A stretch of DNA of 64,000 nt from an uncultured Gammaproteobacteria bacterium (lineage in GTDB: Bacteria; Patescibacteriota; Microgenomatia; Levybacterales; UBA12049): NCBI GenBank assembly GCA_965230895.1, contig OZ246394.1:1121887-1185886 (forward strand), in the 5' to 3' direction. The position numbers and the translations under genes were made by a program. The notes under the pieces were generated by a model. The model was not told where the DNA came from, did not search any database, and saw only the letters and a list, made by a program, of their open reading frames with translations. This document shows positions 1 to 47,841 of this stretch, piece after piece (the first letter of the stretch is position 1; every line of letters starts with the position of its first letter).

Positions 1-3000
1 AGGGAAAGTCCGGCCATCCAGACGCCATCTCTTTGGAAGACATCGTTGGCTTTAATAATGATAGAATTGTTCAATTCTCCAGGGAGACTTAATGCGACCT
101 GCGCTTCACCTCGTTGAATTGCTTGCTGGACATCTAGCTTTGAGGGATTAAGACCCGATGCCTGACTGAATTCCATATTTTGTATTTGAAGCACTACGGC
201 ATCACCTTGGCGTAATGTGTGGAAACGTAATTCGTTTCGCTCCGAAGGACGGGTATCATAACCGTAATATTCTCTGTGATTTGTCTTTGTAGCCCATTCA
301 TTCCAGACTCCCGTCTCACCAGATACTGGGCGTTCAATTGTGCGCGTTTCAAATCGAGTTGCAATATTTTCTGTATTTACCAAGCTACTCCCTTGATCAT
401 ATTGCAATGTATCGCCCTGGAAAAATGCGTCATTTATAAGTACCTGGTCTGGCTTTGCATCAAGGACTAGATCAAATCTCCCATTATCTTCAACCCAATG
501 TGTTCCATCAGGGACATTTACTCGGTGCCCCATGATATCTGCTGCATGGGATGTCGTCGACGTAAATCCTTCGGTCGCTGGTCCAACCTCTCCTGCTCCA
601 AAAAATCGTTCAAGTGATGTCATCTGTGTTGGACGATCTGCCAACCCGATCGATTCAGCACCTCGATGTAAGCCTGCAAAAATCTCTTGCGTTACAGCAT
701 GGCCAATGACGCTTCCACCAGCCGCCATGACAAATGTCATTGAACCTTGTTTTGCTTGCGCGAGAACTCGCGCTCGTCTCATCGCACTGTCACGACTATC
801 GATAGACTCGTTTGACTCTATACTTGTGCTGAGTGCTGCTTGAAATTGGTTCTGAACTTCGGTACCGCGTTGAATATTTCGTTGCAATGCGTCAGAGAGA
901 GGATTAAGTATTTTATCTACAGAATCTCCTGGCTGGAAATCAACACCGAGCGAACGTGCATACGCTTGCATACCAGGAACATTATCTTGTGCATACTTGC
1001 GAAGCTCTGCAGTTGTTCGGGCTTTTAAAAGTTCGAGATCTGTCTTTTGAGCGTCCAATGATTGGTCTGTCGTTGTACGATATAATTCGACATTTGTGTT
1101 ATCATCCATCATTTGGCGGCGAACTTTACTATCTGCAAGTAATCCAAAAGCGTTATTTAGGATGTCATTGGTCACACGACCTGATTGAAGTTGCTTTCGT
1201 GCTTGCTCCAAAGGATCAAGGACGCCTGTTTTGATATCAAGCATTGGCAACTCGAGCTTCTTCATTTCATTGCGTCGTTTTGCTTCTTTATCAAAGGCAA
1301 CTCCTCGTGCAGCCTCACGACCATGCTGCTCATATTCCCTTGTGAATCGTGAACGTTCTTGCCCAGCCCGTACTGCACCAGCTACGGCAGAACCTCCTAA
1401 GATTGGTAAGAATATATTTCCACCTAAAGCTCCAGCTCGCTGCAGAGCATACAATCCCAAACCAGTAGCGAAGCCTGCAGTGTTATGGCCGCCGACAAAG
1501 CCAAGAGCCTTTAATCGCCCACTTGCGGAGTCAATTGCATCAAGATACGCGCCAGGCACAGGGAATTCTGGACCTCTATCTTGCTCTATCTTTTGGTAAA
1601 GATCCATAACACGCTGATTCGTAACGGAACGTGCATATTTTGCTTCGCGTTTTGTTTCTTGTACACTTCCTTGCTCACCAGCTTGCAATGTACCGACGTT
1701 AACTTTAAGCACCATTTGGTCAACATAGTTTTGGAGATTACCTTCTGATTGGAGATGGTTTTTGATAGACATTAACTGCGGCAAGAGAACATTTTCGACC
1801 ATAGGGACAATATTTGTTCCATAACTCATGGAGAGATCCAAATTACTGCGAACATCTTCTGGAAGATTATTTCTCCAATTTGTAAATTCTTTACTGAAGA
1901 ATTTCTCTTGAACAGCAGTACGAATTTCAAGAAGACGATCCTCGCTCAACGTCCCTCCATTTGCTAAGCCTTCTGTAAGCATCGGAGTAATTACTTCATT
2001 TTTGAAGAAGTCAGCGACCGGTCCTGTCATTACAATTTCTTGCGCACGCTTTTCGCCTACAGCAGTTCGTATTGCATCATCACTAAACTCAGTACCAAGC
2101 CTTCGCGCCAAACCTTCTCCTGCTTTAAAATCACCTGTGAGCACATCTTTATATGATTGGACGAGTTCTGGGTTTGCTGCGACAAAAGCTTGTACTCCTG
2201 GCTCACCTGAACTACGAGCATCATAAGCGCTGCGGAGCGTCCGAACAATTTCAACTTCTTGTGCAGCCAGCTCACGTTGATTCCGTCCAGCAAGTTCTCG
2301 CAAGTTTTTTATTTTGTTTTTGCCTCGCTCCCAACGACTCATATCATCGGTTTGATTCTCATTGATCTTATCGCGTGCTGAAGCGACTCTATCTTTCATT
2401 TTTTCCCGACGGTTCATCCCATCTCTTCGAGCATCTCTATCCGCTTTTTCTTGATCTCTGGCTGCAGTAATAGTTTCCTGAGCTGCATTGCGTATATTTC
2501 GTAAGAACTCATACGGCAAAGACTTCATTTGCACACCAGCTTCAGCCAAAAGCTGGTGCGATTGATCTTTTTCTTTTACATAGGTGTTCAGACTATGCAC
2601 GCCATATTTCCACCAACGAGGAATTGCTTGCTTAAATGATTGCTTCAGTTGATCGATTTTAGTGGAGTCTTCACCTTCAGCTTTGCCTGCCCACTTTTCC
2701 TTGCCTTCAGTCATGCGAGCTCGAGCAGTCATACGCGCTTCTTGCTCGACAACTTCTTGCTCTGTCTGACCTTCTTTTCCGATTCTATGCTTTGCCGCTG
2801 CAACTGAGAACTCAACACTCGCTAATTCTCGAAGAACTTCTTCAGGATCACGAGTGTCCGCATCTTTTGGAAGACTAGGCGTTGGTTGTTCTTCAGAATG
2901 CTTTTGTGGTTCTCTTTTTTCCGGTGCAGGACCATCGTGTGTGCCACGATCTTTAGTATCCACTGGAGCAGGACGAGGTGCAGATGTCCCCTCTGTAGTC

Positions 3001-3026
3001 GTTGGTGCTGGTTTAAATTCCGCCAT
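1..3026 (-). CDS. Giant hypothetical protein, 5' part only (>1008 aa in window; 3' end runs off window start)
   Basis: My own translation of the minus strand shows an uninterrupted frame from ATG at 3026 (preceded by AAAGGA 6 nt upstream and an in-frame TAG at 3084-3086) down to position 1. It is absent from the ORF track only because there is no stop codon in the window. The plus-strand small ORFs at 276-3152 are antisense shadows. The product has Gly-rich hydrophobic segments (e.g. FVGGHNTAGFATGLGLYALQRAGALGGNIFLPILGGSAVAGAV) and charged helical stretches. GC is visibly higher than in the rest of the window. Confidence 0.7.
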   Translation of the reverse strand, partial: MAEFKPAPTTTEGTSAPRPAPVDTKDRGTHDGPAPEKREPQKHSEEQPTPSLPKDADTRDPEEVLRELASVEFSVAAAKHRIGKEGQTEQEVVEQEARMTARARMTEGKEKWAGKAEGEDSTKIDQLKQSFKQAIPRWWKYGVHSLNTYVKEKDQSHQLLAEAGVQMKSLPYEFLRNIRNAAQETITAARDQEKADRDARRDGMNRREKMKDRVASARDKINENQTDDMSRWERGKNKIKNLRELAGRNQRELAAQEVEIVRTLRSAYDARSSGEPGVQAFVAANPELVQSYKDVLTGDFKAGEGLARRLGTEFSDDAIRTAVGEKRAQEIVMTGPVADFFKNEVITPMLTEGLANGGTLSEDRLLEIRTAVQEKFFSKEFTNWRNNLPEDVRSNLDLSMSYGTNIVPMVENVLLPQLMSIKNHLQSEGNLQNYVDQMVLKVNVGTLQAGEQGSVQETKREAKYARSVTNQRVMDLYQKIEQDRGPEFPVPGAYLDAIDSASGRLKALGFVGGHNTAGFATGLGLYALQRAGALGGNIFLPILGGSAVAGAVRAGQERSRFTREYEQHGREAARGVAFDKEAKRRNEMKKLELPMLDIKTGVLDPLEQARKQLQSGRVTNDILNNAFGLLADSKVRRQMMDDNTNVELYRTTTDQSLDAQKTDLELLKARTTAELRKYAQDNVPGMQAYARSLGVDFQPGDSVDKILNPLSDALQRNIQRGTEVQNQFQAALSTSIESNESIDSRDSAMRRARVLAQAKQGSMTFVMAAGGSVIGHAVTQEIFAGLHRGAESIGLADRPTQMTSLERFFGAGEVGPATEGFTSTTSHAADIMGHRVNVPDGTHWVEDNGRFDLVLDAKPDQVLINDAFFQGDTLQYDQGSSLVNTENIATRFETRTIERPVSGETGVWNEWATKTNHREYYGYDTRPSERNELRFHTLRQGDAVVLQIQNMEFSQASGLNPSKLDVQQAIQRGEAQVALSLPGELNNSIIIKANDVFQRDGVWMAGLS

Positions 3027-3177
3027 ACATTGTCCTTTCTTAGAGTTTGCAAAAATAGCAGCATATGTGCCGCCTCTTTGCCTCTATCCATTTATTATAC
3101 ATACTCTCATATAAGACAACAACGAATTTTTGAGAAAATAAGCACCTTGTAATGAACGTAAAAGGTAGATGTAAGGA

Positions 3178-3537
3178 TTAGTTTGAGGAATCAGCTGGAG
3201 TACTGAGATATACACCTTGAAATTCAATTAACACATCCGTCATAAACTCTGTAAAGTTAGCAATATGATCTACTGCAAACTGTTGCAGTTCTGCTTGCGA
3301 AGTATTTTGTTTCAACAAATTTTCAAACTCTGTAACATCTTCATCTGAAAATGCAGCAATAACCCGAGCCATGATAAAGTCATTGAGTCTTATTTGCAAA
3401 TCCTTTCGCAGTTCTTCACGAACCGAGTCATCCATATCGGGATAATTTTTCTTGTCGATGAGATCGTCTATGTATTGATTAATATTTTGCTGGTCCATGG
3501 ATATATTTACTATAGAGTGCAACTTCGGAGATGTCAA
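3178..3537 (-). CDS. Small acidic hypothetical protein (119 aa)
   Basis: Intact ORF lying between the PP2C-domain gene (17-nt gap) and the giant gene, on the same strand. It is Asp/Glu-rich and has no recognisable motif. Confidence 0.45.
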   Translation of the reverse strand: MTSPKLHSIVNISMDQQNINQYIDDLIDKKNYPDMDDSVREELRKDLQIRLNDFIMARVIAAFSDEDVTEFENLLKQNTSQAELQQFAVDHIANFTEFMTDVLIEFQGVYLSTPADSSN

Positions 3538-3554
3538 TCATATGAGAAGTGCTA

Positions 3555-5753
3555 TTAGGAGATAGGCTCATATACGAAAGACGGAAAAGCCTGTGTAACA
3601 TCATCTTCTCCCTTTTCATAAAAAAATTGTACAAGCGCTCGTGTATTTTCGGGCTTCTTACTCTCGTGCTCTCGAAAAGCATCTTTCCAAGCAGTTTTAC
3701 CTTCCTCGTCAAACCCGTTTATACTCAAATATGCATCCATACTATCAACGGAATCTACCTCAAAAGTTGCAGCGGCTAATTCATTTGCGTATCCTATGTA
3801 AATATTACTCTGCACGTCGCCTGCCTGCTCAAGCTGTTGCATCTCTTGCTCTATCTTTGTACGTCTTTCTATCGTTAACCTACTTTTTCGAGCACGCATC
3901 ATATTTTTATAGAGCACGTCGACATCTACTTGTTGAAGAATATCACTGTTATCCACATAGGTAATAAATTGCTGTTCAATTGGAGTTATTCGTCGACCAA
4001 TCTTTGCTTCCACTGCTGCAATAAGTTGTTTACTTGCAAGTATGTACTCCAAGTTTTGGCCAAAGAGCGTATTACTTGCTTTTGCAGCATCAAGTGCTGC
4101 AGATGGCTTCTTATCAGGAATATCTGCTGAGATATCAATCACTTCAGCTGTCATATCGTCTTTCTTTGCACGGACATCGCTACTTAACCTTGATCTAGCT
4201 TGAGCAGCTTCGATCAGTTTTGAAACAGCCTGAGACGCATTTTCTCCAGAGGCAAGAAGAGATTCTATAGCACTATCCGTGAGATTATCATGGATCCCAT
4301 CTGAAGTTATAAGATACCGATCGTCTTCTTCAACAGCATGCACTGTTAAAGAAGGCTCGATATATTGGATTCCTAGTGCCTGTCCTACTTCATTCCTTGT
4401 ATGGAAAGCATTCTTTTCCGGACGACTTAAAGCGCGAAAGTCATCTGCTGTATCAAGCGCTGCGAGCTTTCTCTGACGGGCCCATTGCTCATTTGGATCA
4501 ACAAAAGGACGCGGGTCATCAAGCGTTAGAACCTCGAGCTTTCCATCCCGGAGACGATAGAGTCGAGTATCACCGATATTAACATGAATTAGCTGCTTTT
4601 TCCCATCATTTCCCTCATAGATGTGGCTCAATGAGAGAGTCGTTAATCCCTTACCCTGTGTCGTTTCCAAAACCATCTCATTACATCCAATTGAGATGCG
4701 CATGAGGAAATCTGAAACTTCTTCAAGCGTTGCACCGTCAGGGATATACTTCACTGCTTCGGCGAGATAGTCTTTCGCATTTTGGACGGCCTTATCAGCC
4801 TCATCGCTTCCGCCTACACCATCAAGCACTCCAAACGACCGACTATCCATATCAAAGAGTAATCGATCTTGATGCGGTTTGCCTTTCTCATTCTTAACTG
4901 TCTCTCCTGCTGCAATGTCACCATACGATACCTTTTCTTCAGTCTCGCTTGGCGTTGTCGTTTCGATCGGAGCAGGTGTAGTTTCTAAAACTGTTACACC
5001 TAACTTATGGGCAAGAGCATCCAGACGTGTTCTTTCAGTTGCTGAAGGTTTGCGCTGTATCCCAGACTGTATTTTTGTAGCAATTTTTGCTTTCACATCT
5101 TCTTTTTGTGACAAAATTGCTCGTGCAACAGCAAAATCAGCTACTAATTCATCAGCATTTTTATCAGTACCGAAAATAGCCAACATTGGCTTGATCGCAT
5201 CCAATCTATTTTCTAATCGAGCTATATCGACGGAACCATCAGCTCTTGTGCATCCATCTGAGATATCTTCAATGAACCGATTAATATTACTGCCCTTTTC
5301 GGAGACATACTTCTGCCTGAATGTTTCCACTTGTGCATAGAGTCCCTGATCATTCATGTTATTATCGGAGACATCCAAGCCAATAGCTCCCAATGTCATT
5401 CGGCGCTCCCCTCGTATATGCGTATCTACCGCCGGATCTTGAAAAAACTCTTGCATTGAATCGTAAAAATCCATATTCCATTCTTTATTGCGGACATCAA
5501 AATCACGGTTATCATTTTTATCAAATTCATGCCGACTTTCTAATGAAACCTTATTTGCAGCGGTTAATGCTGTATGAAGTGCATCAGGAGTTTTTTGAGA
5601 GAGCGTATCGCGTTGCTCATCAGACATACTATGCGCCTCATGCCGCACAAAAGAAGTTTCGACCGCTGCTGCTGTAACATGTGCTATTGCTGGGGTAACT
5701 TGGACACGACTTTCTGATTCACGATTATGGGGACGCTCTGTATGTTCTCTCAT
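3555..5753 (-). CDS. PP2C-family Ser/Thr phosphatase-domain protein (732 aa) with uncharacterised N- and C-terminal regions
   Basis: The central region carries the PP2C signature blocks: FGVLDGVGGSDEADKA (the DGHGG-like metal-binding motif), IGDTRLYRL (GDSR-like), and YLITSDGIHDNLTD (the DG..D C-terminal metal motif). About 290 aa N-terminal and about 240 aa C-terminal have no identifiable motifs. Confidence 0.6.
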   Translation of the reverse strand: MREHTERPHNRESESRVQVTPAIAHVTAAAVETSFVRHEAHSMSDEQRDTLSQKTPDALHTALTAANKVSLESRHEFDKNDNRDFDVRNKEWNMDFYDSMQEFFQDPAVDTHIRGERRMTLGAIGLDVSDNNMNDQGLYAQVETFRQKYVSEKGSNINRFIEDISDGCTRADGSVDIARLENRLDAIKPMLAIFGTDKNADELVADFAVARAILSQKEDVKAKIATKIQSGIQRKPSATERTRLDALAHKLGVTVLETTPAPIETTTPSETEEKVSYGDIAAGETVKNEKGKPHQDRLLFDMDSRSFGVLDGVGGSDEADKAVQNAKDYLAEAVKYIPDGATLEEVSDFLMRISIGCNEMVLETTQGKGLTTLSLSHIYEGNDGKKQLIHVNIGDTRLYRLRDGKLEVLTLDDPRPFVDPNEQWARQRKLAALDTADDFRALSRPEKNAFHTRNEVGQALGIQYIEPSLTVHAVEEDDRYLITSDGIHDNLTDSAIESLLASGENASQAVSKLIEAAQARSRLSSDVRAKKDDMTAEVIDISADIPDKKPSAALDAAKASNTLFGQNLEYILASKQLIAAVEAKIGRRITPIEQQFITYVDNSDILQQVDVDVLYKNMMRARKSRLTIERRTKIEQEMQQLEQAGDVQSNIYIGYANELAAATFEVDSVDSMDAYLSINGFDEEGKTAWKDAFREHESKKPENTRALVQFFYEKGEDDVTQAFPSFVYEPIS

Positions 5754-5820
5754 ATATTCAGTATAGCAAAATGTGATCTAGCACACAGAAAACTGCTGGG
5801 ATTTATGCTATAAATAATCA

Positions 5821-7002
5821 ATGAAGAAATTTTATCAATTCATTACTGCATTTTTCTTTATCCCGCTTCTCCTCGCTTTTCCATTTGCTCAACAAACCCA
5901 GGCTGCAGAATTTCGTGCAGGAGATGAGGTGCGGATCAATGCAGATGAACAAAATCTTAATAATCTTTACCTCTTTGGTGGAAATATAACTTTAGACGCT
6001 CCGGTCGCAAATGAATTGACGACAGCAGGTGGGGATTTAAATCTTAATAGTGCTGTTGAAGGAAGCGCTCTAATAGGTGGAGGAAATATCACCATACGAG
6101 GACCAATTGGCAATAATGCTAGAATAGCGGGCGGAGATATTACGATTGATGCGCCAATAACAAACGACCTTGTTATTACAGGGGGCAATATAACAATCAC
6201 TAAGAACGCTTCAATTGGAGGAGATATCCTCTTTGCTGGGGGAAAGCTTACTGTAGACGGATCGGTTGCTGGCAAAATTCAGGCAAATGGTGGAGATATC
6301 GTAATTAATAGTACAGTCGATGGAGATGTTTCAGGGAATATAGAGAAGTTAATACTTGGTCCTGCAGCAAATATTTCTGGCAATCTTTCATACAAATCAC
6401 CGGAGCAGGCAAAAATTGAACAAGGGGCAACTATTTCTGGGCAAACGAATTACCAGCCTGAACATAACGACCAAGACCGCGAAAAGAGTGCAGCGGGATT
6501 CTTTGCAGGGGCCGCATTCTATAAGTTGATTGCAGATATAATTATTTGTCTCCTTTTCGTGTACTTCCTCAAAGGCTCAATCATAGCTATTATCAATAGA
6601 ATGAGATCCTCACCAGTAAAAAGTGGTGCTGTAGGGTTTGCATTCATTATCCTTGTACCGATCGCCGGTTTTCTCCTGTTCCTTTTACTTTTCCTCGGAG
6701 TCGTAACCATGTTGAGTTATGCTCTATTCTGGCTTATTAGCATATTCATTGCGCAGCTCTTTCTTGGCTGGGCACTTATGCATTGGCTTCAAAGAAGTAA
6801 TAAAGCAGAGTATATTCTCGATTGGAAAGCGGCTATTGCAGGACCAATTATTGTGTTTATTTTAATGTTTATTCCGGTCTTTGGATGGTTGGCATTTGCT
6901 GTAGTTTTCTTAATTGCACTTGGAGCAATGCTTGGAGAATTGATAACTCTTATTTCTACGCAAAAGCAAATAACCACGACCAAACCTTCACGAAAGAAGT
7001 AA
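5821..7002 (+). CDS. Membrane protein with a bactofilin-like beta-helical repeat domain (393 aa)
   Basis: The N-terminal hydrophobic signal/anchor is followed by a region of about 170 aa of imperfect repeats (GGNITI, GGDITIDAP, GGNITITK, GGDILFAGG, NGGDIVINST, SGNIEKLIL) that resemble the alternating G-D/N-I pattern of the bactofilin (DUF583) beta-helix. The C-terminal half has about 4 predicted TM helices. Confidence 0.5.
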   Translation: MKKFYQFITAFFFIPLLLAFPFAQQTQAAEFRAGDEVRINADEQNLNNLYLFGGNITLDAPVANELTTAGGDLNLNSAVEGSALIGGGNITIRGPIGNNARIAGGDITIDAPITNDLVITGGNITITKNASIGGDILFAGGKLTVDGSVAGKIQANGGDIVINSTVDGDVSGNIEKLILGPAANISGNLSYKSPEQAKIEQGATISGQTNYQPEHNDQDREKSAAGFFAGAAFYKLIADIIICLLFVYFLKGSIIAIINRMRSSPVKSGAVGFAFIILVPIAGFLLFLLLFLGVVTMLSYALFWLISIFIAQLFLGWALMHWLQRSNKAEYILDWKAAIAGPIIVFILMFIPVFGWLAFAVVFLIALGAMLGELITLISTQKQITTTKPSRKK

Positions 7003-8512: not shown

Positions 8513-8652
8513 AGATAATAAAAAATCCGAAGCTCGAAATCCCAAATACGAAACAAAACCAATTTTTCAAAATACTAACTACAATCTTTAATTGTGGGCA
8601 TTTGTATTTTGAGCTTGTTTCGAATTTCGATATTCGAATTTCGGATTTACTC

Positions 8653-9585
8653 TTATACGTTTACGTTTAAACTAATTCCTTTTTCTCCAAGTTTTTCTTC
8701 GATAACTGAGATGGATTTACCACCCATGTTTCGCATGGAGACTAAGTCTTTTCGTGGAGTACTCAACAATTGTTCAATTGTTTCGATTCCACCATTTCGA
8801 AGACTATTGTAAATTCTTGTTGGAAGATCTAATTCGTCAATTGTCATCTTCAATAAATTCTGTGGAATTGAAGAAGTAACAACTGGACTTTCTGCTACTG
8901 CTGCTGATTCTTTTGGTTCATAAATCTGTTGGAAGTATGAAGTCAAAAGCTTAGCTGCTTGCATAAGTGAATCTTTTGGATCAACTGTACCGTTTGTCCA
9001 GATCTTAAGAGTTACTTTATCAAGATCAGTTCGGCGACCAACACGTGTTGCTGCAACTTGGTAAGTTACTCTTCGTACTGGAGTGTATACAGCATCAGTT
9101 GTCATAACACCAAGAGCTGTTGAGCGTCGTTCTTCAGCGAGTGAGAAACCAAAGCCTTTTTCAACTGTAAGTTCCATTTCAAGTTTTGCTTTATCTCCTG
9201 AGAGTGAACCGATGTATTGATCTTTGTCAACAACTTCAACTCCATCAGTTGCTTCAAGGTCAGCTGCTGTAACTTTCTTTGGACCTTTAACTGAAAGTTT
9301 TACAGTTGCACTGTCTCGGCCTTCAGCAAGCTTTAAGTTAAGTTCTTTAACATTAAGGAGAAGATCTACGATATTTTCCTTCAAACCAGCGAGTGTTGAG
9401 AACTTGTGTTTAACACCTGTGATTCGAACTGATGTAACAGCTGCACCTGGGATTGAAGTGTAGAGAACTCTTCTCAACGCATTTCCCATTGTGTGACCAT
9501 AACCTGGTTCGAGTGGTTCGATAACAAATTCTCCAAAATCTGGAGCGGTTGTAATTTCTTTAACTTTAAAATTGAATTCTTCCAT
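8653..9585 (-). CDS. rpoA: DNA-directed RNA polymerase subunit alpha
   Basis: N-terminal domain GYGHTMGNALRRVLYTSIPGAAVTSVRITGVKHKFSTLAG, and a C-terminal domain with the helix-hairpin-helix region (IDELDLPTRIYNSLRNGGIETIEQL). Confidence 0.95.
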   Translation of the reverse strand: MEEFNFKVKEITTAPDFGEFVIEPLEPGYGHTMGNALRRVLYTSIPGAAVTSVRITGVKHKFSTLAGLKENIVDLLLNVKELNLKLAEGRDSATVKLSVKGPKKVTAADLEATDGVEVVDKDQYIGSLSGDKAKLEMELTVEKGFGFSLAEERRSTALGVMTTDAVYTPVRRVTYQVAATRVGRRTDLDKVTLKIWTNGTVDPKDSLMQAAKLLTSYFQQIYEPKESAAVAESPVVTSSIPQNLLKMTIDELDLPTRIYNSLRNGGIETIEQLLSTPRKDLVSMRNMGGKSISVIEEKLGEKGISLNVNV

Positions 9586-11617: not shown

Positions 11618-12370
11618 TTAAACTGTCAGCATCAGTGGGCCGTCTTTTGTAATAGCGATTGTGCGCTCGTACAGTCCTGCTATTTTACCATCTGCTGTAC
11701 GAATCGTCCAGTGATCATTATCAAGCATAACCTCAGGTGTACCCATATTATAGATAATCTCAACAGCAATAGTCATACCTTCACGAAGCTTCGGTGTCTT
11801 TTCAATCTTACCATGAAGATATCCTGGAACCTCTGGTTCTTCATGTAATTCTTTACCCACACCATGACCGATCAAACTTCGAACGATACTGTAGCCGCTT
11901 TGTTTTTCTACGATATCTTGAATCGTTTTAGAGATATGTCCGATATTGTTGCCAATTACAGCTTGCGCTATCGCTTCATCAAGAGCGGTCTTACCAATCG
12001 ATAAAAATTTCTGAGCTTCTTTACTTCCAGCTCCAACAATTGTTGAATCACTCATGTCAGTATGAAACCCTTCGTAGAAGACTCCACAGTCCACACCAAC
12101 GACGTCACCTTCTTTAAATGCATAATCTGTCGGAATTCCATGAACAACAACGTCATTGGTCGACATACAGATTGTATAGTCGTATCCTTCGACTTTCATA
12201 AATCCAGGCTCTCCACCCAATTCACGGATCCTTCGTTCTGCTAATCGATCTAAATCTAATTCGGTTACACCTGGTTTTACCGCAGCCATAACTTCGCCAA
12301 GAACTGTGGCGAGGATGTGGCCTCCATGTTGCATAATTTTAATTTCTTCTGGTGATTTTATATGTATCAT
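11618..12370 (-). CDS. map: Methionine aminopeptidase type I
   Basis: MetAP pita-bread fold motifs are present (HGIP, FKEGDVVGVDCG, metal ligands D/D/H/E/E), 250 aa. Confidence 0.92.
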   Translation of the reverse strand: MIHIKSPEEIKIMQHGGHILATVLGEVMAAVKPGVTELDLDRLAERRIRELGGEPGFMKVEGYDYTICMSTNDVVVHGIPTDYAFKEGDVVGVDCGVFYEGFHTDMSDSTIVGAGSKEAQKFLSIGKTALDEAIAQAVIGNNIGHISKTIQDIVEKQSGYSIVRSLIGHGVGKELHEEPEVPGYLHGKIEKTPKLREGMTIAVEIIYNMGTPEVMLDNDHWTIRTADGKIAGLYERTIAITKDGPLMLTV

Positions 12371-13056
12371 AATAAGTTTTTTCTTTTTAATTCATTTTTA
12401 ATTGATGCAAGCGTATCTGCTTCATCCATTTCAGAATCATCTAGGATAAAGTATCCAAGCTTCTCTGGATCTTTTGCGAGAGGATCCATTGCTCTATTTT
12501 GGTCCCGCTCATCTCTTTCCCGGACATCTGCAAGTACTGTGGCAAAATCTATGGTATCACCCTGCTCAGTATATTGCTTTAATCTCCTCTTTGCACGAAC
12601 TTCATCTGTCGCAGTGAGAAAGACACGTAATGCAGCATTCGGAAAAACGACAGTTGCTGTATCTCGTCCTTCGATTACAACAATATGACCCTGATTAACC
12701 ATATCTTCTGCAACGCTTCTTTGCAAAAGCACTAATTGTTTTCTTACCTCTGGAAGTGATGCAACAACAGAAGATCCATTTGCTGCATCTGGTTCTTTAA
12801 TTCTATCGGTAACATCTTCTCCATTGAGGAAAATCTGCTTCTCTCTGAACTCTATTTTAACATCCTTTAAAAGACTGATCACTTCCTGAGCGTTATGCAG
12901 GTCAATGCCCTTCTTAATCCCAGCTAATGCAACTGCTCTATACGTTCCTCCTGTGTAGAGATAAAAGCCCTGCAAATCGTCCGCAAGCTTTGAAGCAACT
13001 GTCCCTTTCCCGGCAGCAACCGGCCCATCGATAGCAATTACAAATCCTTTTGACAT
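12367..13056 (-). CDS. cmk: Cytidylate kinase
   Basis: IAIDGPVAAGKGT P-loop, GRD...VVFP, and a general match to Cmk architecture (recalled E. coli Cmk aligns along its length). Confidence 0.85.
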   Translation of the reverse strand: MSKGFVIAIDGPVAAGKGTVASKLADDLQGFYLYTGGTYRAVALAGIKKGIDLHNAQEVISLLKDVKIEFREKQIFLNGEDVTDRIKEPDAANGSSVVASLPEVRKQLVLLQRSVAEDMVNQGHIVVIEGRDTATVVFPNAALRVFLTATDEVRAKRRLKQYTEQGDTIDFATVLADVRERDERDQNRAMDPLAKDPEKLGYFILDDSEMDEADTLASIKNELKRKNLL

Positions 13057-14968: not shown

Positions 14969-15412
14969 CTAAACACTTTCGACCGATCCCCCGGCCTTTT
15001 GAATCTTTTCTGCTGCGTTCTTAGAAACTGGTAATTTAACTGTCAATGCAACATCAAGTGTACCATTTCCAAGGATTTTGATCTTTCGGTGTTTCCCAAG
15101 TTCATCTCTAACTAATCCTTGTTTTGTAAGTGATGCGACATCCACAACTGCACCTTTTGCAAAAACATTCAATGCATCAACATTAAGAATATATGCTTTT
15201 TCTTGCAATGAAGCGTTTCGACTTTTACCTCGAAGGAATGGCAAACGCTTTGTCAAAGGTAATGCTCCACCTTCAAATCGAAGTGGAACACTATTTCGAG
15301 CTTTTTGCCCTTTTTGTCCTCGTCCTGAAGTTTTACCACGACCTGATCCGTGCCCCAAACCTACACGTTTTTTACTTTTTGATTTTATCTGCTTTAATTC
15401 TGTTAAGTTCAT
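14969..15412 (-). CDS. rplO: 50S ribosomal protein L15
   Basis: GLGHGSGRGKTSGRGQKGQKAR Gly/Arg-rich L15 N-terminus. Confidence 0.93.
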   Translation of the reverse strand: MNLTELKQIKSKSKKRVGLGHGSGRGKTSGRGQKGQKARNSVPLRFEGGALPLTKRLPFLRGKSRNASLQEKAYILNVDALNVFAKGAVVDVASLTKQGLVRDELGKHRKIKILGNGTLDVALTVKLPVSKNAAEKIQKAGGSVESV

Positions 15413-15414
15413 AA

Positions 15415-15942
15415 TTAACCTTTCTTAACGACAGCTACTCGATCTTTTTCTTTTGCAACCTGCTCACTGACTTTTCTCAATGCTTCAAGTGTCGCATAGA
15501 TATTACTAATCTTATTTGTTGTTCCAAGCATCTTTGAAGAGATATTTTGGATACCTGCTGCTGATACAACACTTCGAACAGCTCCACCTGCGATAATACC
15601 ACTTCCTGGAGGTGCTGGCTTTAGCATAATCTTTGCTGCACCAATCTTCACATCGATTCTGATAGGGATGGTACCTTCGACCAATGGGATTTCGATTAAA
15701 CCTTTCTTTGCTTTACTAATACCTTTTCGGATAGCACTTGAGACATCTGGAGCTTTACCTAAACCTACTCCAACTCGACCTTTTTTATCACCAACAACTG
15801 TAAGCGCTGAGAATCCAACTTTATTTCCACCTTTTGTTTTCTTTGAAACACGGTTAATTTGTACAACATTCTCTTCAAATTCACTCGGAGTTTGATTAAA
15901 TTGTCTTCTTTGATTGTTATTTTGATTTTGATTAAATGCCAT
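15415..15942 (-). CDS. rpsE: 30S ribosomal protein S5 (Asn/Gln-rich N-terminal tail)
   Basis: S5 dsRBD and C-terminal domains (VVQINRVSKKTKGGNKVGFSALTVVGDKKGRVGVGLGKA). It is directly followed by rplO with a 2-nt gap, so there is no room for rpmD (L30). Confidence 0.93.
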   Translation of the reverse strand: MAFNQNQNNNQRRQFNQTPSEFEENVVQINRVSKKTKGGNKVGFSALTVVGDKKGRVGVGLGKAPDVSSAIRKGISKAKKGLIEIPLVEGTIPIRIDVKIGAAKIMLKPAPPGSGIIAGGAVRSVVSAAGIQNISSKMLGTTNKISNIYATLEALRKVSEQVAKEKDRVAVVKKG

Positions 15943-19629: not shown

Positions 19630-20283
19630 TTACAGTGCGTCTCCTCCCTCAGGTCTATTAATCCAAACTTTAATACCGATATACCCCTTCTTTGTTAATG
19701 CTGGGTATTGAGCATAACTGATATCTTCACGAATTGTAGACAACGGAACTGTTCCCAAATGGATCTTTTCTCGTCGTGCAATTTCTGCTCCATTAATACG
19801 TCCAGTCAAAAGAATCTTGACTCCAAGTGCTCCTGAACCCATAACTCGCTCTGCAGTTGAATTAAGAATTCTCTTGAATGGAAGTCTTCGAACCAATTGA
19901 TCTGCAATATTGTTCGCAACTAAGTATGCATTCAAGTTTGGTTCTTTCACTGGTTCAACTCGGATATCCATTTTTGGAGCTTTTCCACCACGCTGCTTTG
20001 TAAAGAATACTGTAATTGCTTTCTTTAATTCTTCAAGTCCACTTCCACCTCGACCAATAACAATACCTGGTCGTGAAACATGGATGATGATCTTCAAACT
20101 GTTAATTGATCGCTCAATTTCAACACTTGCGATACCTGCTGATCGCAATCGTTCCATAAGCATCTTTCGAAGACCAAAATCTTCGAGCAAGACATCCTTG
20201 TATTGTCGTTCGTTGAACCATCGACTACTCCAAGTATGTACTGCACCTAATCTAATAACGTGTGGATTAACTTTTTGTCCCAT
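19630..20283 (-). CDS. rpsC: 30S ribosomal protein S3
   Basis: [13 protein letters not shown]... KH domain. Confidence 0.93.
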
Positions 20284-20297
20284 AAATATATTTTAGC

Positions 20298-20825
20298 TTA
20301 TTTAGCTTTTTCCTCCTTTTTCTTTGGCTCGCTTTTAGCGGCTTCTGTTTTCTTCTTTCCAGTCAAGCGAGAAGCTAATGCTTTAACACCTGATTGCTTT
20401 TTTTCTTCTTTTCCGTACATTGCTGCTTCAACTGCTGCATCTGCTCTTTCAGAAGCTGTCGCAACTTGAGCTTTTGCTGCTGCATTTGCAACAACCTTTT
20501 CTTTCAAAATAATAGTCAAATGAGTTCCGCGCTTTTTGTACGGATGAATTCGACCTCGAGTTGAAGGACGGAATCTCTTCAACACTTGTCCTTGATTCGC
20601 CATGATTGTACTGATGTACAAGTTCTTTGCCTCAAGGTTTGCATTGGTTACAGCGTTTGCAACTGCACTCTTTAATGTCTTTGCAATTGGCCCTGCTGCC
20701 TTTTGTTCTGTTACCTGAAGCATGCGGTACGCATCTTCAACAGGTAAATTTCTTACCGCGTCAGCTACTAATCGTATCTTACGTGGACTTATTCTTACTG
20801 ATTTTGCTATTGCTCGTACTTCCAT
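20298..20825 (-). CDS. rplV: 50S ribosomal protein L22 with Lys/Ala/Glu-rich C-terminal extension
   Basis: L22 core MEVRAIAKSVRISPRKIRLVADAVR..., followed by a low-complexity tail of about 60 aa. Confidence 0.9.
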   Translation of the reverse strand: MEVRAIAKSVRISPRKIRLVADAVRNLPVEDAYRMLQVTEQKAAGPIAKTLKSAVANAVTNANLEAKNLYISTIMANQGQVLKRFRPSTRGRIHPYKKRGTHLTIILKEKVVANAAAKAQVATASERADAAVEAAMYGKEEKKQSGVKALASRLTGKKKTEAAKSEPKKKEEKAK

Positions 20826-25642: not shown

Positions 25643-25852
25643 AGTGTTTTAAAAATAAAATCTCTCAATTCATTTATTGAGAGTAAATGTATGATACTAC
25701 AAAAAACGTGCCCCGTCAATAGGTTATTGTAAGAAAAACAGACTAAAACTCATGTATTTTGTTACTTTCCGTTGTTTTAGTATATTTATATTAAGGTATA
25801 TATAAGATATATATGCTTGACATTAGATTTTTTAAAGTGCAACAATAAAGAT

Positions 25853-28144
25853 ATGAATCCTGACCAAGGCACTACGTCACAAACACAACCTCTACCAGCA
25901 CATGATACTCTAAGTGCACAGTCAAGAAAACCATTGCCAAAGAAGTTTTTTATTATTGGGGGCCTTTTATTATTGCTCATCATTGCAATTGCATTGACAT
26001 TATTATTTGGGAAAAGTGAGAAAACTACCTCGAAAGATAATACTTCAGCGGTAGCTCCAACTTCAGGATTTGAAGAGATTAAAGAAACTGCGGAAAATTC
26101 ACCAACTGCAAAAGCTAGCTCGCATGTTGTAGTTTATGGATCATGGACAGGACAATCATCTTTAATAAAAGCAATTGATACAAATACCTCCAAAACTCAG
26201 TTAATCGCTACCCTTCCTATGGCAATTAAAAAAGTCGCTGTTCTTAACAACCAATCTCTCCTTTATATTGGGGACGTTGATAAAAAGGATCATGGGAAAA
26301 ACGTCACTATATACGATATAAAAGAGAAGAAGGTAGTTTCTACTATCTCAGCTTCTGAAGGGTACGGAATTGATGAATATACATTATCTCCAGATAAGAA
26401 GTATCTTGCGCTATGGGAGGTTCAATTTGCACAAGGATCAGAAATATTACAAGGTGGAAAGTCCAGAGTTTATACAGTTGCATTATCGAACCCAACAGTT
26501 AAGAATCTTATATATGATGAGCAAGCATTACAACCAATTCACTATCCACGAGCAATTCTTAATGATGGAACAGTATTTATGGATATGTTTATGCCAAATG
26601 ATCCACTTGGTGGAGCAGGATGGGCATACGGCATGAGTATGGCTTCGTTTGATGGGACAAATAAACGCGATATTGATTCATTAAAGTCAGGAACATATGG
26701 AAATCAGCCAGCATTATCACAGGAAGGTCGATATCTGCTCTTAACAGGATATGATGGAAAGTATGGAGATGGCACAGGCGTTAAGAATGGGATTCGCCAA
26801 GCAATCCTTACATCAAATACTGTTGATCTTGTTGATACAAAAACACTTCAGAGGTATAAATTACCAAATCTTTCAAACAATGATAGCTATGCATCTGCGC
26901 ATTGGGACTTTGTGACAGGCAAGATTATACTTTCAGTAGTAGGCGCAACAGCGGATAAAACAGGTCTTTATGCCTATGATATTGCATCAAAATCTCTTCA
27001 AAAGATTTCTGTTCCCTCGATAAATAACACTGAGTATATGCAAATCTCTAATCTACCAAATAACCAATTATTGATAGGCACATTTGAAGAAAATTCATCA
27101 AATCTTGGTAATTTAGGAGCAAATTATGAATATGCTTATACAAAACTAATGACATTGGATACTAAGACCTCTAAAAGCAAACCAATCTCTCTTGAAGATA
27201 CGTATGCACAATATATAACAGTACTTCCAGCTGATTATTTCAATAATGTCCTCGGGATCAAAACAATAGCCCAAGCAAATCCTCAGCCTACATTTGTAGA
27301 CCAGTATTCTGATCAAAATGCTACAAAAGAACGGTTGCAACTTTATACATTCTTCTTGAAATATGATTTGCAGCCTGTTCGCCTAAAGCAACAAAGCACG
27401 CCTGTTTCAACAACTCCAGTTAATTTATCAAAGATTACGCTGACGCCAAACACAACCTATCCACCACATAACGACGATAATATGCCAAAATGTAATGACG
27501 TTACAGCAAAAGTTTGTGCAGAAAAAGGTCAAGGTCCAGGAACAAAGGACTACACAATGTGTAAAGGTATGTACAAAGCACAAAATATGGAAAGAACGTG
27601 TGATGACTCTCCCCTTTACCTTTATGGTACACCTGGACAAAAAGTCCAAGTAACGATAAACACACCTGTTTATAACGCAATCCCATCCTATGATAGGGGA
27701 TACGAAATTACATTGATGCAACATGGGAAAATGCTTATCAATAATAACTCGTATGACAGAATTTCTTATGACTACTCATCAAATTTGAAAATAAGAAAAG
27801 CTCCAAAAGAGGGAAGTGTAACAACAAAGGAGAATTTGCCTTCCCTACTTAAAGATTATGCAAGAAAGCTTGGGCTCAATGATAAAGAGACTAAAGATTT
27901 AATCTCTGCTGGTTTACAGAAAGTCAAAACACCATACGCATTCGTCTCTTTCTATGATCATGAGACATCACATCGTATATTGCCAATCACATTCAATCCT
28001 CAGCCAGATAATTACTTAAATGTTGTATTCTATTTCAAGCAGCTCCAACAAAAGCCGAACCTAACCCCAGTCCCTCCTACATTCCCAGATCCGGTTAAAA
28101 GAGATGGATTTACTGCAATCGAAGTAAGTGAAGTTGTTGAGTGA
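25853..28144 (+). CDS. Membrane-anchored (N-terminal TM) extracytoplasmic protein, paralog A, with an extra Cys-containing C-terminal region
   Basis: The N-terminal polar tail is followed by a TM helix (FFIIGGLLLLLIIAIALTLLF) and then a domain of about 420 aa that is colinear and clearly homologous with the downstream gene. Shared blocks include YGSWTGQ, SPDKKY..WEVQF, LLGGKSR.Y, PTVKN..YDE, WAYGMS, FDGTNKRDI, GTYG.QPALS, LGNLG and QYITVLP. An SPDxKY-type motif suggests a TolB-like beta-propeller, which is a guess. The track start at 25817 is TTG. The ATG at 25853 (MNPDQG) matches the MDPAQP start of the paralog. Confidence 0.6.
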   Translation: MNPDQGTTSQTQPLPAHDTLSAQSRKPLPKKFFIIGGLLLLLIIAIALTLLFGKSEKTTSKDNTSAVAPTSGFEEIKETAENSPTAKASSHVVVYGSWTGQSSLIKAIDTNTSKTQLIATLPMAIKKVAVLNNQSLLYIGDVDKKDHGKNVTIYDIKEKKVVSTISASEGYGIDEYTLSPDKKYLALWEVQFAQGSEILQGGKSRVYTVALSNPTVKNLIYDEQALQPIHYPRAILNDGTVFMDMFMPNDPLGGAGWAYGMSMASFDGTNKRDIDSLKSGTYGNQPALSQEGRYLLLTGYDGKYGDGTGVKNGIRQAILTSNTVDLVDTKTLQRYKLPNLSNNDSYASAHWDFVTGKIILSVVGATADKTGLYAYDIASKSLQKISVPSINNTEYMQISNLPNNQLLIGTFEENSSNLGNLGANYEYAYTKLMTLDTKTSKSKPISLEDTYAQYITVLPADYFNNVLGIKTIAQANPQPTFVDQYSDQNATKERLQLYTFFLKYDLQPVRLKQQSTPVSTTPVNLSKITLTPNTTYPPHNDDNMPKCNDVTAKVCAEKGQGPGTKDYTMCKGMYKAQNMERTCDDSPLYLYGTPGQKVQVTINTPVYNAIPSYDRGYEITLMQHGKMLINNNSYDRISYDYSSNLKIRKAPKEGSVTTKENLPSLLKDYARKLGLNDKETKDLISAGLQKVKTPYAFVSFYDHETSHRILPITFNPQPDNYLNVVFYFKQLQQKPNLTPVPPTFPDPVKRDGFTAIEVSEVVE

Positions 28145-28186
28145 TCGAGCTTGACAAACTCTCCGCAATATTGACAAAATAGCTCT

Positions 28187-29635
28187 ATGGATCCTGCCCA
28201 ACCAAATCCCAATCAACCATTACAGCAGCCACAACAACCGCCACAGTCAGAGCAAGCTGCTACGCCCGTTGCACCAACACAGCCACCAGCACCTGACGCA
28301 ACAAAGCCTTTCCCAAAAAAACTCGCGCTAATAGCAGGCGGAGGTGCGCTCATTCTTCTCATTATTATTGCAGTTATATTTGGCCTGAGTGGAAGAAAAT
28401 CTTCTAACGGAACTGTAATGCCCACTCCAACGAAAGCTCAATCTGGGGGAGAAGTTAAAGCAACGCCTGTAACAAGAGATCCTGATGATCCACAAAAGAT
28501 GATGATCTATGGAACATGGACAGGGCAAACAACTGTAGTCCGGGGAGTTGATATTGGCAGCTCCGAGAGTCTTAATATTGCTACGCTTCCACTTGAGGTA
28601 AAGAAGATTTCAGTTCTCTCCTCGCAGAACCTGATGTACATAGATCAAGTTGACACAAAAGAGTTAGGACGTAGGATAACTATTTATAATCTTAAGACCA
28701 AAACTTCAAGTCAAAGCATTCCGGCCTCTTCAGGATATGGGATAGAAGATTATGCTTTATCTCCGGATAAAAAGTATATTACTATTTGGGAAGTCCAATT
28801 TGGATCGACAACACAATCTCTTCTAGGTGGAAAATCAAGAATCTATGCAATTGATTTATCAAGACCTACAGTAAAAAACATTCTTTATGATGAAACAGTA
28901 AGTACAACTATTCCGATACACTACCCAATAGGTATTTTGAATAATGGTACTGTCTTCGCAGATACTCTTATTCCGAGTGGCACAAATGGCAGTAAAGATT
29001 GGGCATATGGTATGAGTGTTGTTGACTTTGACGGTACAAATAAGCGAGATATTGAATCGATGAAGAAAGGAACCTATGGAACCCAACCAGCACTTTCCCC
29101 TGACGGCAAATACCTCCTATTTGCAGGATATGATGGATCAAAAGGTAACGATCCTGCAGGGAGACAAGCAATAATGACACCAAACACGATTGATGTTCTC
29201 AATACTGAATCACTTAAACGATTCACACTACCAAACCTTTCAAGTACAAATACCTATCCAACGGTTTCATGGGAATCTCAAACAGGAAGAATCTTTTTTG
29301 CTCAATTTTCGCTCGATACTCAGAAAACAAATTCATTCTCATATGATCTGGGCAAGCAAAAACCAACTGAGATCGTTATTCCAATTGAAGGCGATTCGAG
29401 ATATGGATATGTAGAACAACTAAATGATGCAAAAGCACTTATCGGAGCACAAGATCTCGATCCATCTAACCTAGGCAACTTAGGAAATGCTCCTGCTTAT
29501 GCCTACACACAACTAGCACTTTTAGACGTGCAGACTTCAAAAGTTAACTTTGTCTCAGTACAGGATGCATTTGTACAGTATATAACTGTATTACCTACCA
29601 CCTACTTTAAATCCACACTTGGTGAGGCTCAATAG
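28187..29635 (+). CDS. Membrane-anchored extracytoplasmic protein, paralog B (482 aa)
   Basis: The Pro/Gln-rich N-terminal tail is followed by a TM helix (LALIAGGGALILLIIIAVIFGL), then a domain homologous to paralog A. Confidence 0.6.
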   Translation: MDPAQPNPNQPLQQPQQPPQSEQAATPVAPTQPPAPDATKPFPKKLALIAGGGALILLIIIAVIFGLSGRKSSNGTVMPTPTKAQSGGEVKATPVTRDPDDPQKMMIYGTWTGQTTVVRGVDIGSSESLNIATLPLEVKKISVLSSQNLMYIDQVDTKELGRRITIYNLKTKTSSQSIPASSGYGIEDYALSPDKKYITIWEVQFGSTTQSLLGGKSRIYAIDLSRPTVKNILYDETVSTTIPIHYPIGILNNGTVFADTLIPSGTNGSKDWAYGMSVVDFDGTNKRDIESMKKGTYGTQPALSPDGKYLLFAGYDGSKGNDPAGRQAIMTPNTIDVLNTESLKRFTLPNLSSTNTYPTVSWESQTGRIFFAQFSLDTQKTNSFSYDLGKQKPTEIVIPIEGDSRYGYVEQLNDAKALIGAQDLDPSNLGNLGNAPAYAYTQLALLDVQTSKVNFVSVQDAFVQYITVLPTTYFKSTLGEAQ

Positions 29636-39909: not shown

Positions 39910-39945
39910 CTCCATTCAGAATATTTTCAGATATAATAAAAGGAT

Positions 39946-41613: not shown

Positions 41614-41615
41614 AA

Positions 41616-43310: not shown

Positions 43311-43311
43311 C

Positions 43312-44445: not shown

Positions 44446-44501
44446 AAAAACCGCTTTTGCAAAGCAATACTGAGTGTTATACAATACATTATACTACTAG
44501 T

Positions 44502-45059
44502 ATGAAGATAGGATTTGACTTAGACCGAGTTTTTATTAACACTCCACCATTTGTTCCTGGCAAAATTATTACTAAACTTTATAAAAAGAAGGATAATGGT
44601 GTCTTACTTTACAGAATACCTTCCCATTCAGAACAGCTCTTCCGGAAAGCAACGCATCACCCGCTTCTGCGCCCACCTATTGAAGAGAATTTAACTGTTT
44701 TGAGAAGTATTGCAAATAAAAATAATAAACTATACCTCATATCCAGTCGTTATAAATTCCTTGAAGACATCACAGGAAAACTTGTGAAGAGACACGGTCT
44801 TGATGACATTTTTGAAAAGCTTTACTTCAACTATGATAACAAACAACCTCACATATTTAAAAATGATATTCTCAAAAAACTAAAGCTTGATATGTATATT
44901 GATGATGATCTCTCATTGCTCCAATTTGTCGCCAAAGAAAATCCGAAGACTAAATTTTATTGGCTTGAAACTGATGAGAAGGATAGCGCCTTGGCTCATC
45001 ATAAAAAGTTAGAAAAAAATGTCTTCCCTATATCCAATTTATCCACTATACTAAGCTAA
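44502..45059 (+). CDS. HAD-superfamily hydrolase (phosphatase/5-prime-nucleotidase-like)
   Basis: Motif I is IGFDLDRV, motif II is LISS, and a K...DMYIDDD motif III/IV is present. The start is placed at the ATG at 44502. Confidence 0.55.
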   Translation: MKIGFDLDRVFINTPPFVPGKIITKLYKKKDNGVLLYRIPSHSEQLFRKATHHPLLRPPIEENLTVLRSIANKNNKLYLISSRYKFLEDITGKLVKRHGLDDIFEKLYFNYDNKQPHIFKNDILKKLKLDMYIDDDLSLLQFVAKENPKTKFYWLETDEKDSALAHHKKLEKNVFPISNLSTILS

Positions 45060-45060
45060 T

Positions 45061-47337: not shown

Positions 47338-47348
47338 TTATTTGAAAT

Positions 47349-47840: not shown

Positions 47841-47841
47841 A

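Follow-up and report, generated by a model that had tools for sequence, protein, structure and literature searches.

The first 5,753 nt of a 64,000-nt stretch of contig OZ246394.1, from an uncultured bacterium of the Patescibacteria type (the whole stretch is called the window here), raise the question of what three adjacent genes, encoding a protein with a PP2C phosphatase domain, a small acidic protein and the N-terminal part of a giant protein, do together. The three co-directional genes were found on the minus strand where an earlier note on this DNA had placed them, and its view that they form a functional module, and not a recognisable housekeeping operon, is supported by the comparison of related loci. 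It is firmly concluded that the module is real and conserved, with the small protein, assigned here to the family DUF5663, and the giant as its core, and with PP2C, and kinases elsewhere, as recurrent partners; all the contigs and homologues in which it was found can be attributed to bacteria of the Patescibacteria type. The gap of about 150 nt proposed between the small and the giant gene is indeed 151 nt. The gap between the PP2C gene and the small gene, however, is 56 nt and not 17 nt, because the orthologues ('MD.Q') and gene callers place the start of the small gene at ATG 3498. The shorter value presumes a start at TTG 3537, the first base of which is also that of a promoter-like site, TTGACA-17-TATAGT.

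The linkage of the small gene to the giant gene carries the main conclusion. A DUF5663-like gene adjoins a giant-family gene in 11 of the 11 distinct loci with enough flanking sequence, namely the window, L007, L008, L009, L011, L012, L013 (the same as L017 and counted once), L014, L015, L016 and L020, the loci L016 and L020 having been reached from the small protein and not from the giant. The arrangement of the two genes varies. The small gene lies upstream of the giant in the window, L007, L008, L009, L016 and L020, and also in L015, where the giant is without its core module; it lies downstream in L013 and is divergent from the giant in L014. In L011 the small–giant pair is divergent from a PP2C gene and stands beside the gene for ribosomal protein S9, and in L012 the order is S9, TPR genes, DUF5663, a TPR-PP2C gene and the giant, so that PP2C is placed between DUF5663 and the giant. 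The small protein is the obligate partner of the giant.

The small protein of the window is 65–71% identical to its orthologues in L007–L009 and 48% identical to that in L011, and gave no direct match in Pfam. Scored against PF18908 (DUF5663, gathering threshold 23.7 bits), the L007 orthologue reached 17.4 bits, the L014 protein 25.7 bits and the L015 protein 36 bits; a profile built from the window protein and its orthologues matched the small proteins of L014 (3e-36) and L015 (2e-15), and the DUF5663 protein of L020 matched the window protein at 4.8e-16. These similarities point to a transitive membership of the window protein in the DUF5663 family. The small-protein profile retrieved 133 relatives, all of them stand-alone proteins of about 100–180 aa and most with PF18908, whose named sources are Ca. 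Roizmanbacteria and 'Patescibacteria group bacterium'. A metagenome scan with a narrower alignment of the small protein yielded four loci, two of them informative, and a search of genome contigs with the small protein gave only an irrelevant weak match in an alphaproteobacterial single-cell genome (L002). A likeness to COP9 subunit 2, seen as a marginal PDB profile match (5e-4, 54 residues), was dismissed as noise from helical composition.

Two roles had been suggested for the small protein in the earlier note, those of a chaperone and of an immunity-like partner. Of these the first remains plausible for an obligate partner of the giant, as does the role of an adaptor, and the second is not supported, since the small gene is conserved, lies mostly upstream and shows no co-variation with the variable C-terminal modules of the giants: it is 45–71% identical over loci whose giants carry differing C-terminal modules. 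The combination typical of polymorphic toxins and their immunity proteins, a variable toxin C-terminus with a co-varying immunity gene downstream, was not found here, and neither domain nor PDB searches found a known toxin domain in P0013, the full-length giant.

The phosphatase is less regularly present than the core pair. Its identity is well supported: the window protein matches the NCBIfam model of Stp1-type PP2C (NF033484) at 7e-18 and, among PDB entries, Mycobacterium tuberculosis PstP (1txo/2cm1; 1e-8) and other bacterial PP2Cs (down to 1e-3), and all metal-binding Asp motifs expected of the PPM/PP2C superfamily are intact (HQD294–296, LDGVGG310–315, GDTR394–397, SDG484–486 and DDMT532–535). 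With 64.9 bits against an equivalog cut-off of 230, it is not an Stp1/IreP equivalog, members of which have about 240–250 aa against 732 aa here. Regions of about 290 aa and 190 aa flank the catalytic domain on its N- and C-terminal side, respectively, and have no counterpart in the giants. Pfam (PF13672 PP2C_2 and PF00481 PP2C) assigned the window protein to no family even at E ≤ 1; of the full-length homologues P0002–P0004, P0002 and P0004 carry PF13672.

PP2C is an adjacent gene in three loci (the window, L011 and L012), and the giants of L013, L014 and L016 contain it as a fused part, as do 11 of 147 family representatives. A Hanks Ser/Thr kinase domain is fused in at least six representatives, two of which have PP2C also. 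The repeated adjacency in differing arrangements, together with the fusions, therefore indicates that PP2C works with the giant, and the comparison of gene orders gives strong evidence for a functional link between the two, though PP2C is dispensable in some lineages. It could also be that only the pair of DUF5663 and giant is real and that PP2C is a general Ser/Thr phosphatase which a local rearrangement placed beside it. The three closest relatives (L007–L009) have S9, DUF5663 and the giant in a row without PP2C; the best homologue of the phosphatase (P0002, 42% identity, from the same metagenome sample as L007) is found elsewhere, adjoining mgsA-type AAA and HD genes; the window has PP2C inserted, together with a gene for a DUF8173/bactofilin-like envelope protein, between S9 and the small gene; and each gene has a promoter-like site of its own. 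Such a chance neighbourhood is nevertheless judged unlikely, as PP2C adjoins the pair in two further distant loci in different ways (divergent in L011, between DUF5663 and the giant in L012), and repeated, independent linkage combined with fusion, the latter here in three loci and in the 11 representatives, is a classic sign of common function.

As a separate observation, a single protein with both a Ser/Thr kinase domain and ClpB-like AAA+ domains is encoded 3.8 kb downstream of the PP2C-fused giant of L014 (L014:12726–13966). In L015 (7712–11508) the giant is followed by a 1,110-aa protein with GT2 and TPR parts and then by a second DUF5663-like gene (133 aa, profile E 3e-8), an arrangement like a tandem second small-plus-large pair. 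A neighbour of 488 aa that seemed to recur in L013, L014 and L015 was discarded, being a coincidence of length without sequence similarity.

The size of the giant, given in the earlier note as more than 1,000 aa, amounts to 2,299 aa (256 kDa) in full, as established from the Logan contig L001, which is identical to the window and extends the protein to 1,728 aa, and from the identical full-length database protein P0013. Close homologues are few, a word-indexed search having found only three with 48–57% identity, but an exhaustive hidden Markov model (HMM) search with the first 1,008 residues returned 245 representatives at the 50%-identity level, and those listed as full proteins all have 1,000–3,500 aa. 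Module boundaries were taken from the mapping of family representatives on P0013 (Table 1). The modules recombine in many ways over the family: about 77 of 147 representatives have the B domain, in many cases with no core module, and the other fused modules comprise kinase, PP2C, ATP-grasp, FkbM methyltransferase and FBPase. Even close relatives differ in their C-terminal modules, P0015 having an FkbM methyltransferase in place of the C1 module of P0013, and one family member has a HopA1-like domain. The B domain is marked by the motifs IPDGTxW, WYxYxxPxSxxNEL and GDIATE and by a closing PxPxxxRRPLE beyond the window. A structure model of aa 226–1165, built on a 30-sequence alignment, is confident for the helical bundle (about 555–765) and the beta-rich domain (about 825–1115), and has a low predicted local distance difference test (pLDDT) value in the Gly-rich part. 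Fold searches of the models gave no fold relative for two large modules of the giant, the B domain among them, and a PDB sequence search with the full giant gave chance-level matches only.

The enzymatic part that is best defined lies beyond the window start, at aa 1180–1570. A model of this region (15-sequence alignment) has a pLDDT of 88 and a predicted template modelling score of 0.88, and its top 50 PDB matches in Foldseek, with E-values down to 1e-8, are all GT2/GT-A glycosyltransferases, among them PcManGT, WrtF and the hyaluronan, chitin and cellulose synthases. The profile of the region matches the PDB GT2 entries 6yv7 and 6p61. Over 50 sequences the DxD motif (D1354-x-D1356) is invariant, and D1456 (ED motif, 92%) and R1487-R1488 are conserved at 92–100%. 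By sequence the assignment to Pfam PF00535 (Glycos_transf_2) is marginal, 22.1 bits being reached against a cut-off of 23.3. The fold, the DxD and the acidic residue downstream of it place the domain in GT2/GT-A on the strength of a predicted structure and motifs, and the giant probably carries an active GT-A glycosyltransferase.

Gly-rich hydrophobic segments had been reported in the giant, and a hydropathy scan located them at aa 505–556 and 762–785. The invariant motif GG..G..R..QE..RFTRE is found at the first of these, which is followed by a strongly Arg/Lys-containing basic stretch, RFTREYEQHGRE...DAKRRNEMKK. As the earlier note had it, signal peptides are missing from all three proteins, no hydrophobic N-terminus being present in the translations inspected. 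A hairpin topology that would leave both ends of the giant in the cytoplasm is suggested by the positive-inside rule, because the dense Arg/Lys stretch adjoins the segment, there is no signal peptide and the 500-aa N-terminus is hydrophilic.

The possibility of a foreign origin was raised by base composition. The GC excess of positions 1–5753 is real, but its size was overstated in the earlier note, as it amounts to 43.4% against 37.9% and not to about 50% against about 35%. In sliding windows this is the GC-richest 5.75-kb stretch of the window (z = 4.1; maximum elsewhere 39.8%), although the part between 3 and 4 kb has only 37.8%. The excess sits at the first and second codon positions (GC1 0.61 and GC2 0.42 in the giant) and is therefore a property of amino-acid composition and no evidence of recent transfer. 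At third positions the giant has a GC content of 0.32–0.33, against 0.26–0.38 in the other non-ribosomal genes of the window, and the synonymous-codon divergence of the giant (0.038) and the PP2C gene (0.059) falls in the middle of the range of the window's genes (0.014–0.13). The giant orthologues of three relatives show the same tendency, with about 45% GC against 41–42% in their flanks.

Gene order points in the same direction. The three closest relatives (L007–L009) share the order rpoA-L17-L13-S9-DUF5663-giant, and the position directly after rpsI is kept in six loci, over giant identities of 24–71%. Between the window and L007–L009 the ribosomal proteins are 80–95% identical, the small protein 66–71% and the N-terminal 1,008 aa of the giant 60–71%. 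Judged by these comparisons, the small and giant genes are vertically inherited, somewhat fast-evolving orthologues in a fixed slot after rpsI, and there is a firm case that the module was not recently acquired. A recently acquired foreign toxin island, in which the small acidic protein would confer immunity, could be argued from the raw GC content, the highest in the window, and from the lack of a housekeeping annotation for any of the three proteins. It is hardly credible and largely refuted: the GC excess is confined to codon positions 1 and 2 with native synonymous usage, the orthologues occupy the same syntenic slot with the same excess, scans of the window found no tRNA genes and no flanking repeats such as bound genomic islands, the giant, small, PP2C and DUF8173 proteins had no defence-system match in PADLOC, and the small protein is conserved and encoded upstream, unlike cognate immunity genes. 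Codon usage and synteny in relatives were the very comparisons by which the earlier note had proposed to decide the matter, and the toxin-island reading fails on both. Odd codon usage, tRNA or repeat boundaries and absence from relatives, which mark recently acquired islands, were all lacking.

The three genes, though tightly linked, are probably transcribed separately, to judge from promoter-like sequences. The spacer upstream of the giant gene has 150–160 nt in four close relatives and contains a block of about 45 nt, AAAATTC.TTGTTG...GTATGTATAAT.AAT, that is invariant in the window, L007, L008 and L009 and has diverging flanks; AAGGA precedes the giant ATG. The sigma-70-like site in front of the small gene, a candidate by its consensus match, would imply a very short leader.

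How the module works can be proposed only tentatively. The reading put forward here, held at somewhat less than even odds, is that the giant is a glycosyltransferase scaffold anchored in the membrane, facing the cytoplasm and regulated through Ser/Thr phosphorylation, and that DUF5663 is its partner or chaperone. The giant, having no signal peptide, would be held at the cytoplasmic face of the membrane by its Gly-rich hydrophobic hairpins and would present there the GT2-like, DxD-containing GT-A glycosyltransferase, along with other enzyme modules whose cofactors are cytoplasmic. It might thereby build or modify an envelope or surface glycoconjugate. Ser/Thr phosphorylation would switch its activity or assembly, PP2C removing the phosphates set by a Hanks-type kinase, which some relatives have as a fused domain of the giant and which was not found in this window; DUF5663, acting as chaperone or adaptor subunit, would bind the conserved part of the giant. 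This reading is favoured because every recognisable catalytic module (among them kinase, PP2C, ATP-grasp, methyltransferase and FBPase) needs cytoplasmic cofactors, kinase and phosphatase can share one protein, the locus holds a fixed place in the core genome and a signal peptide is lacking.

Several observations weigh against this proposal. No annotation backs the function of the module, no kinase-like ORF was found in the window, and the absence of an adjacent PP2C gene from the three closest relatives indicates that the phosphatase is dispensable. The hydrophobic segments show no more than moderate hydrophobicity and are poorly modelled, which makes the topology uncertain. The giant evolves faster (60–71% identity) than the neighbouring ribosomal proteins (80–95%), and the C-terminal swaps, such as FkbM for C1 in P0015, and the HopA1-like domain would be less expected of a housekeeping enzyme than of a diversifying protein of effector type. 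Lastly, one distant pair of DUF5663 and giant, that of L020, lies inside a cluster of type IV secretion system (T4SS) genes.

This last locus is the starting point of the main rival explanation, in which DUF5663 would be a small acidic chaperone or adaptor and the giant a multi-enzyme effector, with glycosyltransferase, phosphatase, kinase and other payloads, delivered into or onto a host cell; delivery could use the type IV secretion of Patescibacteria, and the Gly-rich hairpins would insert into the target membrane. In L020 (6880–19560; also L021 and L022) DUF5663 and a 1,675-aa giant stand between two T4SS gene groups, with four VirB2-like pilin (T4SS_pilin) genes upstream and genes for PrgI/VirB3-like, TraC-like and VirB4-like ATPase proteins downstream, and this giant is a bona fide family member (GT profile 1e-109, the same Gly-rich segment and DAxRR motif). 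T4SS genes, however, flank only one of the 11 loci: homologues of those in L020 are absent from all other fetched loci and from the window, none lies within 12 kb in L015, whose giant is the closest to that of L020, and with small genomes a single coincidence of this kind among 11 loci would not be surprising. The DUF5663 proteins, acidic (pI 4.05 in the window), helical and always stand-alone at about 100–180 aa, resemble secretion chaperones or adaptors, and the variable C-terminal enzyme modules, the HopA1-like domain and the faster evolution would suit an effector, the enzymes of which would work in the cytoplasm of a target cell too. The pair nevertheless keeps its core-genome slot after rpsI, and kinase and PP2C in one protein look regulatory. 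Delivery as an effector, a reading that rests on that one locus, is considered rather unlikely overall.

A more specific version of the effector explanation links the family to a known gap. According to a 2025 survey (PMC12102498), relaxase-less T4SS are widespread in Patescibacteria and have probably been co-opted for a function other than conjugation; a 2024 perspective (PMC11665869) calls their role completely unknown, mentions speculated effectors and reports that the T4SS is essential in cultivated Saccharibacteria. Neither paper mentions the giant/DUF5663 family. DUF5663 and the giant might form the missing cargo system of these T4SS, the small acidic adaptor presenting an effector of about 250 kDa with several enzymes for delivery into the host bacterium and the PP2C of the window being a detached payload or a regulator; this is regarded as improbable.

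Table 1. Features of the module and its surroundings; nucleotide positions refer to the window, and residues of the giant are numbered on P0013
Feature	Position (nt)	Strand	Position (aa)	Basis or remark
DUF8173/bactofilin-like envelope gene	5821–7002	+		ORF and family match
Divergent intergenic region, PP2C gene/DUF8173 gene, 67 nt	5754–5820	.		ORF coordinates
PP2C-domain protein, 732 aa	3555–5753	−		ORF translation
PPM/PP2C catalytic domain	4119–4886	−	~290–545	Profile and PDB alignment
Sigma-70-like site TTGACA-17-TATAGT	3509–3537	−		11/12 consensus matches; 10 nt before small-gene ATG
Small acidic helical protein, 106 aa, pI 4.05	3178–3498	−		ORF translation; orthologue starts
Intergenic region upstream of giant gene, 151 nt	3027–3177	−		Sequence
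Putative giant-gene promoter: TTGTTG (3122–3117), 17-nt spacer, TG-extended TATAAT (3099–3094)	3122–3094	−		Conserved block
Leader hairpin and U-run, in a leader of ~60 nt	3074–3057	−		Sequence
Giant gene, N-terminal 1,008 codons	1–3026	−		ORF translation; ATG 3026, runs off window start
N-terminal charged region			60–220	Family mapping
Helical core module; motifs GDFxAxEGLARRL, LSxSYGTD, GTLxAG	1527–2279	−	~250–500
Gly-rich hydrophobic segment, read as membrane hairpin	1359–1514	−	505–556	Hydropathy scan
Gly-rich segment plus basic stretch			505–700	Family mapping
Helical bundle, second weaker hydrophobic patch (aa 762–785) at its end	672–1358	−	~557–765	Model pLDDT >90 over most; hydropathy
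Helical 'mid' part			700–800	Family mapping
Beta-rich B domain, first part in window	3–554	−	~825–1150	Model pLDDT ~90–96; 830–1150 in family mapping
GT region (predicted GT-A glycosyltransferase)	Beyond window start		~1180–1570	1200–1550 in family mapping
Pro-rich linker	Beyond window start		After GT
C1	Beyond window start		1720–2100	Family mapping
C2	Beyond window start		2100–2299	Family mapping

Some features of the surroundings may be recorded in their own right. The DUF8173/bactofilin-like protein combines a signal peptide and a beta-helical repeat region with a multi-pass membrane domain at its C-terminus. Its gene stays near the giant gene in three related genomes, on varying sides, and lies downstream of the giant in L008 (17264–18439) and L009 (16691–17884). 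A few kilobases downstream of the giant in the same two relatives are genes of the bAvd/23S_rRNA_IVP type (L008:19039–19341; L009:18483–18857 and 19991–20320) together with a Gmad2 gene; bAvd proteins are accessory proteins of diversity-generating retroelements. In the ribosomal-protein cluster of the window, an inverted repeat (8515–8656; 42-nt arms, 76% complementary, 58 nt apart) fills the rpoA–rplQ intergenic region, the cytidylate kinase gene (12367–13056) stands between adk and map, as it does in L008 and L009, and the S5 gene (15415–15942) abuts the L15 gene (14969–15412) without L30 between them (14969–15942). Whole-window scans of the 64 kb found no tRNA gene and no Rfam match, despite a complete ribosomal-protein cluster with tuf and fus. 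Farther on, positions 39000–48000 have a GC content of 34–35% and include two tandem PMT_2-type membrane glycosyltransferase paralogues (39946–43310), followed by a GT4 gene (43312–44484), a gene for a DUF2298 membrane protein (45061–47337) and then LCP (47842–49047) and FemAB (52500–53534) genes; the gene content, LCP and FemAB included, suggests a neighbourhood of Gram-positive type concerned with envelope glycosylation and the cell wall. Together with the source names of the DUF5663 homologues, the missing L30, the two PMT_2 paralogues and the DUF2298, LCP and FemAB genes suggest a Patescibacteria-type organism as the source of the window. Of three large ORFs without a convincing family at 25817–29635 and 59022–62276, those of 775 aa and 482 aa had no Pfam match and that of 1,084 aa had only a marginal match to GCS2 (2e-4).

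Much of bacterial diversity belongs to the Patescibacteria, whose conserved genes for the most part lack a known function. The linkage described here ties DUF5663 to a family of giant proteins for which the HMM search gave 245 representatives (50%-identity level). Should the module build or regulate the cell surface, it would be relevant to the way in which these epibionts form their interface with the host, and if it is cargo of the T4SS, it would supply the first candidate substrates for that secretion system; either reading leads to concrete, testable gene targets. In the literature searched, no paper mentioning DUF5663 and no description of the giant family or of a connection between it and DUF5663, PP2C or kinases was found, and the papers on giant proteins and on T4SS of Candidate Phyla Radiation (CPR) bacteria do not describe this family.

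Compared with known systems, the phosphatase has the same catalytic domain (aa ~290–545) and metal-binding Asp motifs as the bacterial PPM/PP2C phosphatases PstP, Stp1/IreP and PrpC; it differs from PstP, Stp1 and PrpC in its 732 aa, in the absence of a transmembrane segment and of a paired kinase gene here, and in being linked or fused to a giant glycosyltransferase protein. In Gram-positive bacteria PP2Cs control envelope synthesis together with Hanks kinases. The glycosyltransferase domain shares its predicted fold and the DxD, ED and basic RR motifs with GT2 membrane glycosyltransferases (PcManGT/DPMS-like polyprenyl-phosphate enzymes and the hyaluronan, chitin and cellulose synthases), but, unlike the solved GT2 enzymes, with which it is 10–17% identical, it is embedded in a protein of 2,299 aa and lacks the polytopic transmembrane domains of synthase type.

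The small–giant pair recalls chaperone/adaptor–substrate pairs such as VirE1–VirE2, IcmS/IcmW with the Dot/Icm effectors and Lap1/Lap2 with LXG toxins, since here likewise the gene of a small, acidic and helical protein adjoins, and mostly precedes, that of a very large modular protein in which the N-terminal part is conserved and the C-terminal enzymes vary. Sequence or profile similarity to the VirE1, IcmS and Lap families is lacking, however, and linkage to a T4SS was seen in only one of the 11 loci. Large glycosylating toxins (TcdA/TcdB, LifA/Efa1 and the chlamydial cytotoxins) have 2,000–3,200 aa, a GT-A DxD, an internal hydrophobic region and no signal peptide, and the giant resembles them in size class and in each of these respects. 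In contrast to these toxins, its glycosyltransferase is central and not N-terminal and GT2-like and not GT44, no cysteine-protease domain was found, and PDB sequence and fold searches with the giant gave no match to any of them.

The ten longest proteins of Vampirococcus lugosii are giant membrane proteins with WD40, PKD, fibronectin and integrin adhesion or interaction domains, to which a role at the cell surface or at the contact with the host has been ascribed (PMC8080830). Like these, the present family is very large and apparently membrane-associated, and it too occurs among ultrasmall episymbiotic or predatory bacteria; unlike these, it has enzymes of cytoplasmic type (GT-A, PP2C, kinase, ATP-grasp and methyltransferase), no signal peptide and an obligate DUF5663 partner. 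Two large modules of the giant are without fold relatives, the PP2C and GT2 components are of known kinds, and the nearest known kinds to the module as a whole are the giant membrane proteins of CPR bacteria and phospho-regulated envelope enzymes.

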